A DNA stretch of 42,061 bases from the NCBI RefSeq assembly GCF_006345805.1, contig NW_021832121.1:1-42061 (forward strand), given 5' to 3'. The position numbers and the translations under genes were made by a program. This DNA comes from Octopus sinensis. Its lineage: Eukaryota. Positions 13,860 through 41,985 of this stretch are shown here, piece after piece. The notes beneath the pieces were generated by a model that worked only from the letters and a program-made list of their open reading frames with translations, ran no database searches and had not been told where the DNA came from. How positions within the stretch are numbered: the first letter of the stretch is position 1; every line of letters starts with the position of its first letter.

Positions 13860-13988
13860 ATTTTTTCTGTGTCCCTTTCTGTAGAAGAGCGTAGGCTCGA
13901 AACGTAAAAGACTTTTTCTATTCCTGAGCGTTATACTAATACATCTGTTTGTTTTGTACACCACATGTTTTCTTTCGTAAACTCTCCC
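13860..13988 (+). mobile_element. PLE pseudo-LTR fragment with a minimal hammerhead-like motif (13875-13910)
   Basis: cttt-CTGTAGA-agagc-gtag-gctc-GAAAC-GTA-aaag; ends in (TA)n; near-identical minus-strand copy at 39628-39800. Confidence 0.65.
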
Positions 13989-14231
13989 TATATATATATA
14001 TATATATATATATATATATACATATATGAATGAGTGGACATACGAAAGAAGAGTACTCAACATATTTATTGGGAGTTACATGTATGGATCAAAACAGTTT
14101 GATTCAAATTCCTTGGTACTTAAAATTTCAAAGTATAAGATGCCTATCCCCAGTCACTTTCAAATTTCCAAAAGAATTGTGATTACACAACACATTAATT
14201 TTTCAGTTACATTTTAGCGGACATAATTTAA

Positions 14232-15260
14232 TATATAGTGTATACGTGTAAAGTAATTTCTGAAGGACAGGTGTATTTCTGTATAGGTGCTAGCGAGACC
14301 TTTATTAAATGTAGAATAATTAATCATGAACTATCATTTAGGGATAAAACTAAGAGCAATATTACGAGTTTAAATATATTATTCTGGTCGCATACACAAT
14401 TAGCTGGAAGATAATTAGTAGAGCTAAACCATATAGTAGTGGGGGCAAGCCTTGTGAACCGTGTGTCGAAGAAATTAACCAAATTCTTACCTAAAAATTT
14501 AAATTGATAAGCCATAGACAGGAAAGCGCGTTAAGATGTGTTCACCAATTGTGATATACCTTTAAGAGGTTTAAATAGTTGCATAATATGAACCACTAAA
14601 ATCAGAATTTGAATTAAGTAAATTATAACAAGTAACGAACATAAATTAAACTGGGATTTTTTTACAGTTGAAAACGAAGTTTAAGTTGAATAAAGTTAAC
14701 TACAAGAAAAATGAAATTAATTTTTCAAAATAACAAGAAAATAATAGACCCATAGTTTAATAATAATATTAACATCATCAAACCAAAAAATAATTTAATA
14801 CATTTGAAAAAAATAGGAATACTACTCTATATAGGTGGAATGATAAGCTAGAATAGGAATTAAGAACCATAGGAAAATTCTTGAGTACTGACCTAATTTA
14901 AGATAAGGTAACAATAAATTTCGGAGTGGCCAGTGTAATATAAAGTTAACAAAATATTTGACTAATTTCAGAAATTTTTAGTGATTAGTTTTTTGACTAA
15001 TTTTAGTAACGCTAACACCACATTAAAAATGAATTCGGACCAAGCTTATACTCTCTTCAGATAATACCCGACCAACAGTTAAAGTGGACCCTGATGAAGT
15101 TATACTGATAATTAACACAAAAATGCACATTTAACAGTGTGCACCGACTATCAGCAGAAACGTGCGTAGGTCTTGACGAAGAAAGATGTGATCAACTGTA
15201 GAATAAAACTTGGATGTGCAAATCTCTGTTCTCCTGATGTTAATTTCATTTTTTTCTCTA
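14232..15260 (+). mobile_element. Degenerate Naiad-type PLE 3' end (GIY-YIG endonuclease plus pseudo-LTR)
   Basis: YIVYTCKV...YFCIGASETFIKCRIINHELSFR, then WKIISRAKPYSSGGKPCEPCVEE and HRQESALRCVH; same motif order as the element at 36460-36892; HHR downstream. Confidence 0.75.
15087..15172 (+). ncRNA. Type I hammerhead ribozyme motif with extended helix II
   Basis: gacc-CTGATGA-[ctgata..tgcaca..tgtgca..tatcag]-GAAAC-gtgc-GTA-ggtc; helix I gacc/ggtc. Confidence 0.65.
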
Positions 15261-15691
15261 CAGAAGCTATGCAGTCCTTATAAGGACATTTGGATTTACC
15301 AAGTGATTATTAACCGAGTATAATAAATTTTGTCTAACTGAGTATATCTATATTCGCTGTGGTTAAGTAGCATTGACAACCGATAAGAGCGAACACAGTA
15401 TCCGCTAGTATTATATATACCTCTTAACCATATATATATATGTGTGTATGTGTGTGTACATATATATATATATATACATATATACATGTGTGTGTGTGTA
15501 TATATAGAAATAGATAGATATAGACATACCTGTCTTCGTCTGCGTTTTTCTATAAATTTCAACTATGTACACACACACACACACACACACACATACATAT
15601 ATACATACATACATACATACATATATATATATATATATATATATATATATATATATATATATATATATATATATATATATATATATATATA

Positions 15692-16467
15692 AAGAGTAAT
15701 TTATTCAATAAAATTGCCATTGGCTTCAACCACGGCCTCCAGACGACTTCGGAATCTCCAGCAACTCTTCTGGACGGTCTCCTTGTTTAAGTTGGTGAAT
15801 GCTGCGATAATGCTTGCCTTCAGTTTATCTTTGGTGTAACAAGGAGTTTTGTTGGTCTCTCGCTCAACTGCGCCTCACACAGTAATGAAGGGGGTTGCAG
15901 CCTGGGGAGTTAGGTAGTCAGATGTTAGGGGTGATGTGGTCGCAGAAATTGTCTGACAGCCCATGAATGGATATACCTGCTTGTGTGGCATGGTGTAGAG
16001 TCCTGTTGCCAGACACTAGTGTCTTCCAGCAGTCACTCTTTTGACCCAGGGCAGCACTACCTCCTCCAGGCACTTGATGTAGGCCTCCATATTGAGTCTG
16101 AGGCGGTGTGGGGAAAATAAATAGAGGCATAACGTTGCCATCACTAGTGATCACTCCAAACACCTTGATGTTGACTGGATGTTTGATGTTTTATCTCTCT
16201 TGGTACATCTCAAATTACACTGTTCTCAGATTGACACCCAAACACTCTGAAATGTTCGTATTGGAGCTTCCGGCGCGAATGCCAAGCAGTTCAACATGTT
16301 GTTTCCAAATTTCTGGCTGAGTGAATTCCATCATGGTGCTGTTTTTCTCACAGACAGTGCCCAACTGACCCTACCATACTGTGTAGTCAACAAATTCAAA
16401 AGCAAAAAATATGCATGTACGAACTTAAAAATATAAAATAGTGACAATTTACCCATCGCACCCTGTA
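15692..16467 (-). mobile_element. Tc1/mariner (maT/DD37D-like) element, internally deleted
   Basis: VFGVITSDGNVMP...LSDNFCDHITPNI-PNSP-CNP...VERETNKTPC...[10 protein letters not shown]; 5' TIR-like end TACAGGGTGCGATGGGTAAATTGTCAC at 16441-16467. Confidence 0.85.
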
Positions 16468-39523: not shown

Positions 39524-39627
39524 TATATATATTATATATGTAATATATATATATAATATATATATATATTATATATATATATATATATTATATATATATA
39601 ATATATATATATATATATATATATATA

Positions 39628-39800
39628 GGGAGAGTTTACGAAAAAAACAAAAGACGAAGACAGGTGGTGTACAAAACAAACAGATGTATTAGTATGACGC
39701 TCAGGAATAGAAAAAGTCTTTTACGTTTCGAGCCTACGCTCTTCTACAGAAAGGGACACAGAAAAAACAAGGAGAGAAAAAAATGTGTGTAGTGGCTAAC
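39628..39800 (-). mobile_element. PLE pseudo-LTR fragment, same family as 13860-13988 (HHR-like motif at 39718-39753)
   Basis: Near-identical reverse complement of 13860-13988; (TA)n flanks. Confidence 0.65.
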
Positions 39801-40924
39801 GATATATATATATATATATATATATATATATATATAGAAATGACTGTTTTAACGAAGTCGCCTCTTGTCCTTACCTTCGGAACGCCGAGTAGATAAAACA
39901 GGGGACAACTGATGAAGGGAATGTTCTTTATGTTGCATGTCTCGTTTCTCTGTTTGTTTATATTTTTCTTATTTGCCGTATAAATCAAGGTTAAACCGCT
40001 TTTTACCCCTCGCCCATATATAACACTCAATTGCGAGATTGCCACGCAATAACTAGCACATGGGAATGAATAACAGGGTACACTACCAGCAGTATATTGG
40101 ATAGGTACTATCCATTAGTTGGTTGTTCCTAAACCTCTAACTCACACAAAAATACATACACACACACACACACACACACACACACACACACACACACATA
40201 TAAAATATATAAATTATATATATAATATATAAAAAATACATATATATGTATGTATGTGTGTATGTATGTATGTATGTATTTGTGTGTCTGTATTTGTTCT
40301 CCCAAGTACTAGTGTTACAAAGAATAAGCCCCGAGGTCAATTTGTTTGATTAAAGGTGGTGCTCCAGCATGGCTGGAGTCAGATGACTGAAACAAGTAAA
40401 AGAGTGAAAGAACAGAAGAATATATGCACACACTCAGACACACATGTATATATGTGTCTGTGTGGGTGGCGTGCGTACGTGTGTGTGTGTGTTTGTGAGC
40501 GAGAGAGAAAGAGATAGATAGAGATAGAGAGAGAGAGTGTGTGTGTGTTTGTGTGTGTGTGTGCGTGTAATTATTAGTGACAGAAGTAGTATTAGTACTA
40601 AAACGCAATCTTTATATCTAACTTAACGTGGCTATCTTGGTAGAACATCGAATAGATATGCACCCTTGTTGCCTAACTATTTACATCAGAGATTCAGCTA
40701 GGTAAGAAATACATGTAACGTGCATATCACCTGTTACACTCCCTCAATTTGGTTATATACATAAATGTGTGTGTGAGAGGATTTTAATTTCTTTATATCG
40801 TAGTACCCATAACAAATTCGCAAAAAGCTGATGATAGTAGATATGATAAAGAAAGGTGAAAATAATTTTGTTAAGGTTACAGGTACCAATGATACGGGTA
40901 ATTTGGACATGTAATAACTGCAGT

Positions 40925-41985
40925 AATTCATACAGTTCTATATTTAAGAGATGAGGAATTATGTACATTATTTACATTTGACGGATATTTGTCCTCATCT
41001 TGTTTGTCGTTAACACGTTTCGGCTGATATAGACTCCAGCTTTCATCAGATGTCTTGGGGAAATTTTGAACCTGGGTTGTTGGTGTTGTTATTATTATTA
41101 ATATTATTATTATTATTATTATTATGGAATCGAACTTGGAATCAGTAGCCCGCACTCTTAACCACTGCGCCATATGCCCGTGAGCAATTATAGAGTGAAT
41201 TTTAGGGCTTATAAATCTAATATTCTCCTATCCTTCCTTAATACCGGTTCCCATATGCTGTTCATATCTGCACACGGTCTGCTTAGGAGGTTGTTGTGTC
41301 CTAGCATTTAAGCTGCTTCTTTTAGTTCTCGTATTTTCCAATGGTCTTCTCTGTCTATTATTTTAACTTCATCCCACAGGGGAAGGTGGTCTCCATTTTT
41401 CCATACATGATCAGCTATACCCGATTTATCAATATCTCCCCGTGTCACAGCTTTGTGATGTCCCTCTACCCTTATTTTGAGAGGGCGGCATATTTCGCCT
41501 TTGTATAACTTACCACAGCTGCATGGGATGGAGAACACGCAGTTCTTAGTCATATTCTCTTCTATTGGTGGTTTTACTCGAAGGAGATATTTGCGAAGTG
41601 TTGTATTACTTTTTCAATACTGTCCTGATGTCATATGGGCCGCATATCTTTTGTATCTTTTCGGAGAGGCCTTTCACATAGGGTAGACAGACTGTGAACA
41701 GTTTATCGGTTTCATCCTCTCTTTTCTTCCATTATGAAGATTCCGAGTTCGATTCCAGGCAGTGACCTTAATGATAATAATAATAATAATAATAATAATA
41801 ATAATAATAATAATAATAATAATAATATCAAAAAATACCTTAAGAATGAGAACCCAGATTCAAAATTTCCCCAAGACACCTGATGAAGGCTGGGAGGTAT
41901 ATCAGCCGAAACGTTATGTTAACAAAAAACAAGATGAGGAAAAATATCTGTCAACTATAAATAATGTAAATAATGTAAATAATGC
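40925..41985 (-). mobile_element. Penelope/Poseidon-type PLE 3' end with GIY-YIG remnant and inverted pLTR arm
   Basis: Minus strand 41209-41730 reads LPYVKGLSEKIQ...NCVFSIPCSCGKLYKGE...SGIADH...KEAA* (premature stop); pLTR at 40925-41179 (minus) is repeated inverted at 41737-41985 (plus). Confidence 0.85.
41876..41919 (+). ncRNA. Minimal type I hammerhead motif in a PLE pLTR (second, deleted copy on the minus strand at 41011-41053)
   Basis: acac-CTGATGA-aggctg-ggaggtatat-cagcc-GAAAC-GTT-atgt; helix III reduced to ACGT; one mismatch in helix I. Confidence 0.65.

Follow-up and report, generated by a model that had tools for sequence, protein, structure and literature searches.

Type I and permuted S-G-C hammerhead motifs of repeat families on a contig of Octopus sinensis

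Hammerhead ribozymes are known from the pseudo-long terminal repeats (pseudo-LTRs) of metazoan Penelope-like elements (PLEs), for which dimer action and a palindromic helix III have been published (Cervera and De la Pena 2014, PMC4209133; review PMC6765202, which also presents the small-palindromic-helix-III hammerheads of Lunse et al. 2017). The PLE motifs have type I order, an extra base between positions 9 and 10.1, a G10.1-C11.1 pair and palindromic 15.2-16.2 and loop 3 sequences; many families occur per genome, mostly as solo copies or opposite-strand pairs. Hydra-clade PLEs (Craig et al. 2021, PMC8557442) combine a C-terminal GIY-YIG domain with CxCX5C, DKT, CxxC and CxH motifs, lack CCHH, have (TA)n as target and carry hammerheads in which helix II is flanked on either side by an extra base and helix III is a near-palindrome of 8 to 10 nt; the same source links the linker zinc finger of PLEs to (TA)n targeting. 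Hammerheads of type SGC, represented by HRIMA-1 and its variants (Eckert et al. 2023, PMC10085705), have been validated in vitro and come from metatranscriptomes, with none reported from genomes of known organisms. Non-LTR retrozymes (PMC7229834; bioRxiv 10.64898/2026.07.22.740005) are non-coding units of 170 to 400 nt with type I hammerheads, tandem or longer-than-unit copies, a likely circular intermediate and a PLE link. We describe here a stretch of Octopus sinensis DNA, the whole 42,061-base contig NW_021832121.1 (the window), that carries hammerhead motifs both in type I order and in the permuted S-G-C order.

We consider it probable that the window is a heap of 5'-truncated ends from at least nine retroelement families, seven with type I hammerheads, whose cleavage is likely restricted to dimers, and two with S-G-C hammerheads that are predicted to cleave as monomers (Table 1). 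A more specific proposal, held tentatively as a possibility just short of even, is that the S-G-C motif is an active hammerhead of animal retroelements, derived through duplication and loss from a Penelope hammerhead of the palindromic dimer type, with family G as the intermediate, and that these elements are copied from self-cut circles. If this is true, a two-copy ribozyme was turned into a one-copy ribozyme.

The window has 37% G+C and 90 tandem-repeat rows, for the most part microsatellites, which also dominated the output of a repeat search. An Rfam scan (E up to 1) gave no hammerhead among the 150 matches listed of 182, those listed being microsatellite hairpins, and descriptors and homology were therefore used. 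An initial descriptor limited to short helix II overlooked most sites. The descriptor scan of the window returned six sites, three of them with a perfect CUGANGA core, while 20 Markov simulations contained no perfect-core site; single-strand folding of five type I sites never gave a significant z-score. The 2.72-Gb assembly containing the window was searched with each family, 40 candidates being scored and the best 30 fetched, and 100 evenly spaced 10-kb stretches of the genome served as a background sample.

Three S-G-C hammerheads lie within the span of the original prediction, in which they had been overlooked. At the cores at 33904, 34154 and 39909, GAAA is not found downstream; the partners lie upstream, in the order S (helix III strand-UH-helix I strand), G (helix II strand-GAAA-helix III strand) and C (helix I strand-CUGANGA-helix II strand). 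These copies belong to families G and H; families I and J were found by descriptor scans of fetched DNA, and the four families have 3,080 (G), 623 (H), 2,995 (I) and 2,566 (J) genome candidates. The S-G-C descriptor gave 0 null matches per Mb at the scores reached, and the block orders CSG, GCS and SCG gave 0 matches in the 1-Mb sample and the window. One match of GSC order occurred in the 1-Mb sample, and the fetched stretches L082 (about 2560-2600, minus strand) and L288 (about 5190-5270, minus strand) hold a further S-G-C-like match, differently built, and a type II (G-S-C) candidate. The core is intact in 14/30 copies of G, 20/30 of H, 29/30 of I and 18/21 of J. All four families have the PLE-type extra purine before G10.1 and a linker of 3 to 6 nt between helix I and helix II.

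The helices of the S-G-C motif covary. In an alignment of 51 rows, 12 or 13 per family, chosen among 111 copies because their GAAA and core were intact, 92.2% of 735 cells were paired, and covariation was 0.421, compared to 0.216 in shuffled and at most 0.155 in slid alignments. Nine of the 15 pairs changed on both sides (4/6 in helix I, 2/4 in helix II and 3/5 in helix III). Of 30 family I copies, 17 have C-G and 10 have U-A at one pair of helix I, and contigs from sequencing runs (four runs with four organism labels; silent on ends and expression) cover the family I motif with both letters of this pair; by their records, none of the runs listed as holders was RNA. The likeness to HRIMA-1 and its variants (PMC10085705) extends to the S-G-C order, the uninterrupted CUGANGA and GAAA, the linker length and the covariation of helices I to III. 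In contrast to these, families G to J are animal genomic repeats with thousands of candidates, have the extra purine after A9, and are predicted rather than validated cutters. The fourth helix also differs. An outer helix, P0, of 6 to 10 pairs can be drawn between the stretch before block S and the stretch before helix I, with two pairs differing between families G and I, whereas the HRIMA-1 helix connects helices I and II at their free sides. By eye, a helix of the latter kind was possible in G only, and in each of the four families the same strand pairs better in P0. Also by eye, the letters looping out between P0 and helix III read as a kink-turn in J and almost as one in G, but in neither H nor I. 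The short linker joining helix I to helix II and P0 joining helix III to helix I would make a partner unnecessary for cleavage, and on this model the S-G-C hammerheads are predicted to act as monomers. In family G both helix III strands read CGCG, which is expected if the S-G-C form came from a duplicated palindromic dimer-type motif; that this is a trace of such a duplication is speculation.

Nine of the ten sites listed in the original prediction are type I hammerheads, its coordinates marking ends of the motif spans, and they fall into seven families (A to F and D2). First-look searches gave between 64 and 3,740 genome candidates per family (A, 1,136; B, 666; C, 3,740; D, 1,537; D2, 209; E, 64; F, 372). 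Families A to F have C-G-S order, helices I and II and the CUGANGA/GAAA/UH core, with U6 in B and C4 in D as exceptions, as well as the extra base between A9 and G10.1 and a palindromic helix III. They differ from the published PLE pseudo-LTR hammerheads only by helix II arms of up to about 100 nt and by the fixed U6 and C4. The majority helix III was ACAUAUGU in A (retained in 30 of 30 copies), ACGU in B (28/30) and C (28/30), ACAGCUGU in D (27/30) and D2 (24/30), ACGUGCGU in E (10/30) and ACGGCCGU in F (13/30), and the copies departing from it did so mostly by CpG transitions. The palindromes are thus kept within the young families A, B and C. The predicted helix III readings stood at 34351/38765, 18282/30516, 15087 and the ACGU sites; those at 39208 and 13296 did not, the letters in the window being ACGGCCU and ACGGCCAU, respectively, and ACGGCCGU being the family majority only. 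In the D2 copy at 30516, a microsatellite has taken the place of the CUGANGA core.

The tenth site, at 13296, belongs to a separate repeat (family K, 587 candidates), in which most copies are without a canonical core and a GGCYG/CRGCC stem closes around GAAA with no helix I in 20 further copies. It is not confirmed as a hammerhead because GAAA lies in a hairpin loop and helix I is missing. In an alternative reading of 13240-13370 (minus strand), helix II encloses GAAA, with GUAA and then a small hairpin coming next; this is possibly a split-core form. Two other hammerhead-like stretches were seen: a decayed remnant of another family at 325-405 (plus strand; CUGAUGA, long arm, GAAAC; 72% like the fetched stretch L347:1764-1897) and, at 12749-12790 (plus strand), a CUGAUGA-GGC..GCC-GAAA arrangement with neither helix III nor helix I and no relative in the fetched DNA. 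Regarding the odd cores, family B has U6 in 30/30 fetched copies and in 8/8 of an unbiased sample, with positions 7 and 17 variable; its subfamilies, about 20% apart, all keep U for A6, possibly as a slow natural variant. Family D has C4 in most copies, and its master seemingly had C for U4, with CpG decay products in both directions.

PLE coding sequence accompanies two of the seven type I families. The sites at 34351 and 38765 lie one on each inverted arm of a single family A insertion, whose protein has a C-terminal GIY-YIG domain, a CxCX5C linker, CxxC and CxH motifs and no CCHH, with DKT in the longer copy L372; these features place family A probably in the Hydra clade (PMC8557442). Family A differs from that clade in being over 4.3 kb long, with a 3' untranslated region (UTR) of about 2 kb, and very young, where Hydra elements are generally below 3 kb; its helix III motif was absent from a search of the supplement of PMC8557442, as far as that was available. 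All 41 genome matches listed for family A were 100% identical over 131 nt, which indicates its very young age. Among these 41 were 10 back-to-back pairs and no same-strand pair within 6 kb, and the longer family A insertions, which were chosen as inverted pairs, had one ribozyme per strand in 7 of 7 cases. Two family C hammerheads likewise flank a Penelope/Poseidon-like GIY-YIG remnant back to back. Second copies within 1.5 kb were on the opposite strand in 43 of 49 rows and on the same strand in 6, pairs with both members fetched being counted twice. Families B, D, D2, E and F showed no coding sequence within 1.5 kb, and their link to PLEs is inferred from architecture; with that, the seven families agree with the at least six PLE families predicted. 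Pfam and PDB sequence searches left the PLE proteins unrecognised.

Table 1. Hammerhead motifs and Penelope-like coding remnants in the window
Feature	Positions	Strand	Remarks
Family A type I hammerhead	34351..34428	-	Helix III ACAUAUGU, helix I GCGG/CCGC, core intact
Family A type I hammerhead	38765..38842	+	Predicted cut after 38838
Family B minimal hammerhead	13875..13910	+	Helix III ACGU, core CUGUAGA (U at position 6)
Family B hammerhead, second copy	39718..39753	-	Core CUGUAGA
Family C minimal hammerhead	41876..41919	+	Helix III ACGU; helix I ACAC/GUGU, the family majority
Family C hammerhead, opposite arm	41010..41053	-	Small deletion at cut site; absent from the original prediction
Family D hammerhead	18282..18329	+	Helix III ACAGCUGU, helix I GUCU/AGAC, core CCGAUGA (U4C)
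Family D2 hammerhead remnant	30516..30585	-	3' half 30516-30531; helix III and helix I as in D; 49-nt helix II arm differs
Family E hammerhead	15087..15172	+	Helix III ACGUGCGU, self-pairing with two G-U; old family
Family F hammerhead	39209..39331	-	Helix II arm about 100 nt; family helix III ACGGCCGU, one base deleted here
Family K hammerhead-like motif, not confirmed	13296..13325	-	Without helix I; GAAA in hairpin loop
Family H S-G-C hammerhead	33837..33914	+	All core bases, helices I-III intact; predicted cut after 33859
Family G S-G-C hammerhead	34144..34218	-	Core intact, one helix I mismatch; predicted cut 34199; 5' end adjoins TA-rich tract
Family G S-G-C hammerhead, decayed	39844..39919	+	GGAA for GAAA; predicted cut after 39864; start directly behind (AT)n
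Family A PLE, inverted 5'-truncated arm	34321..35144	-	98% identical to 38040-38872 over 835 nt
Family A reverse transcriptase (RT) and C-terminal GIY-YIG open reading frame	35145..36880	+	5'-truncated, frameshifted; CxCX5C linker 36469-36495
Family A 3' UTR/pseudo-LTR arm	38040..38872	+	End about 35 nt past predicted cut
Family C RT-thumb and GIY-YIG remnant, broken	41308..41720	-	CCHH motif, no linker zinc finger; Penelope/Poseidon-like

The established model of a double hammerhead has two copies exchanging halves, with helix III formed between the 5' half of one and the 3' half of the other; that helix I must swap partners in the same way is our deduction. The self-complementarity of helix III that had been predicted is far above chance. 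A survey of 142 perfect-core matches over all fetched DNA gave 33 clusters, in which 18 of 27 even-length helices III were perfect palindromes; among families with eight-nt helices III (F added), 13 of 18 had a self-complementary centre unable to pair as a hairpin, where chance gives 1 in 16 (binomial 1e-12, assuming independent families). Computed energies were +2.4 kcal/mol for a forced monomer hairpin and -7 to -14 kcal/mol for the homoduplex, and type I cleavage is likely to proceed as a dimer. Together these figures support the dimer model already in print (PMC4209133; PMC6765202). The original prediction went further and took the differing palindromes for a self-recognition code, which would confine dimer activation to same-family tandems and keep solo intronic copies quiet; on such a reading it would also protect host transcripts. 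Cross-family pairs are indeed predicted to be largely incompatible (516 of 528 in helix III; 12/528 fully compatible there and 2/528 in helices I and III both), duplexes between different window families fall short of the homo-duplexes by 5 to 15 kcal/mol, D/D2 and B/C being the exceptions, and the palindromes are stable in young families. However, different families share palindromes: D (18282) and D2 (30516) have ACAGCUGU and an identical helix I, B (13875/39718) and C (41876) both have ACGU, ACAAUUGU recurs three times and ACGUACGU, ACAUAUGU, ACAGCUGU and ACGU twice each among the 33 clusters, and five Hydra magnipapillata families share ACUUUAAGU in the published Hydra table (PMC8557442). 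The palindromes are not over-dispersed (8 distinct among 13; a random draw expects 9.1), the rarity of same-strand second copies argues against tandems as the setting for activation, helix III measures 9 to 12 nt in some families and, where it has 12 nt, forms a stable hairpin as a monomer, and the S-G-C families need no palindrome, the helix III strands of H, I and J not being self-complementary. The palindromes are thus likely not a family code, and selection for one seems very improbable to us; a heterodimer test or a palindrome code was not located in the literature, in which subscription papers were thinly covered. We favour instead a model in which type I hammerheads would need a dimer for cleavage, joined by a self-complementary helix III, and in which the letters of this helix would drift freely between families. 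Any palindrome would allow two copies of one element to pair, so that selection would act on self-complementarity and on no particular word, and failure of cross-family pairs would be a by-product of divergence in helices III and I. Since this divergence alone blocks most mixed pairs, dimers limited to one family are predicted in practice, as originally proposed, although evidence of selection for specificity is absent and no palindrome code is needed; the dimer requirement alone suffices for the silence of solo copies.

Among the S-G-C elements, family G has non-coding units about 750 nt long. Its copies end on the 3' side near +290 to +310 of the query and are truncated to varying extents on the 5' side, and 6 of 30 cross the unit's own 3'-to-5' junction. 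It shares with the non-LTR retrozymes a non-coding unit bearing a hammerhead, tandem or over-length copies, a probable circular intermediate and a link to PLEs, and differs from them in its length, its mostly truncated and dispersed copies and its S-G-C order. Of about 20 unselected S-G-C copies found, 14 had 5' ends between -150 and +70, and 5 of these 14 ends fall roughly +1 to +11 away from the predicted cut; the P value of about 0.0006 is post hoc and comes from a small sample. We propose that the S-G-C units would be cut at the ribozyme, then circularised or read from tandem units, and copied into (TA)n by a borrowed PLE-type RT and endonuclease. Derivation from non-LTR (HERO-type) long interspersed nuclear elements or from retrozyme-like repeats, with no mobilisation by PLEs, appears rather unlikely. 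Second copies are mostly direct tandems in G (4/4) and I (4/5), as such an origin would suggest, but those of H are inverted back to back (5/5), 5'-inverted pieces were found in G, (TA)n follows the 3' end in 22/24 I and 11/16 H copies, and the extra purine before G10.1 is a PLE hallmark (PMC4209133). Upstream of the G, H and I copies, where an RT gene was looked for, only unrelated neighbouring insertions came to light. Another view would make the hammerheads mere passengers, with cleavage dispensable for retrotransposition and the odd cores of B and D and the S-G-C motifs being non-cutting relics. Families B and D did spread with U6 and C4, respectively, and changes at A6 and U4 reduce activity in published work, in which natural A6C and U4C variants are slow (PMC3088659); PLE hammerheads are poor cutters in vitro (PMC4209133), and Naiads proliferate without a canonical hammerhead (PMC8557442). 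We nevertheless judge this view improbable, as compensatory changes occur in all three helices across G, H, I and J and inside I, variation in family B is seen at positions 7 and 17, which are free, with the rest kept, and the S-G-C 5' ends gather at the predicted cut.

Several observations weigh against our interpretation of monomer-cutting S-G-C elements and dimer-cutting type I elements. The nine S-G-C pairs changed on both sides are no excess over the 8.3 found in shuffles, and four related families provide few independent covariation events. Helix II of family G has only three pairs, two of them G-U, with the outer pair broken in 14/49 rows. P0 is 79% paired, but its covariation is not above that of shuffles in the joint alignment, in which family I is out of register by one column. 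No RT gene was linked to G, H, I or J. Nearly all type I copies run through the cut site and must therefore have been copied from uncut or religated templates. The fetched genome copies, as the best 30 of 40 scored, are biased towards the query; the 33 clusters are mostly single copies with possible private mutations and are not phylogenetically independent, and the palindrome common to D and D2 may be shared by descent.

A hammerhead hotspot, as had been suggested for this region, was not demonstrated. The descriptor background was 33 matches per Mb (null, 6), and the window had 3 matches compared to 1.39 expected (P=0.16). The homology count of 13 compared to 1.2 expected is biased because its families were picked from the window, and only about 4 of the 33 background-sample matches belong to window families. 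The suggestion of shared (TA)n targeting fared better. (TA)n lay within 300 nt of 10/13 window copies, compared to 29% in the background, and was present within 300 nt downstream of the cut in 29/30 copies of family A, 23/28 of B, 18/27 of D, 11/25 of D2, 6/9 of E, 4/17 of F and 2/26 of C (background, 20%; copies with a motif intact enough for placing). Most families therefore target (TA)n, as published, with family C excepted, a pattern that fits the published association of (TA)n targeting with a zinc finger in the linker (PMC8557442).

Other features of the window were noted in passing. Antisense to the family A 3' UTR, at 34939-34985 (plus strand) and 38200-38245 (minus strand), CUGAUGAG is followed by an 8-bp stem that is fixed in this young family; as a hammerhead, the CUGAUGAG stem at 34939/38245 was rejected since it has no GAAA. 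RT fragments (Pfam RVT_1) of a non-LTR and an LTR-type element occur at 5211-5654 (minus strand) and 7193-7516 (plus strand), respectively. An abundant repeat, about 400 nt long, resembles a short interspersed nuclear element and contains a microsatellite; it is present at 565-933, 2268-2674, 3909-4347, 6130-6551, 7847-8260, 24036-24316, 28319-28780 and 33186-33564. The stretches 15240-15300 (plus strand) and about 1930-1990 (minus strand) look like splice sites with short exons.

That helix III is palindromic, that cleavage involves dimers and that (TA)n is targeted is already published biology, and the idea of a code adds little to it; the permuted motif matters more. Non-circular permutations of this RNA have been reported once before, in metatranscriptomes without a known host, and beyond that report (PMC10085705) we located nothing on type-SGC or permuted hammerheads in metazoan retrotransposons, with subscription papers thinly covered and the supplements of PMC10085705 and PMC4209133 possibly bearing on the point. 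As far as this search reached, S-G-C hammerheads in animal genomic repeats are a new variant, and standard descriptors miss this whole class of retroelement ribozymes. With thousands of animal genomic candidates and the intact copy at 33837-33914, the S-G-C fold becomes directly testable. The natural contrast between predicted monomer S-G-C motifs, likely dimer type I motifs and the U6 and C4 cores bears on the role of the hammerhead in Penelope-type retrotransposition.

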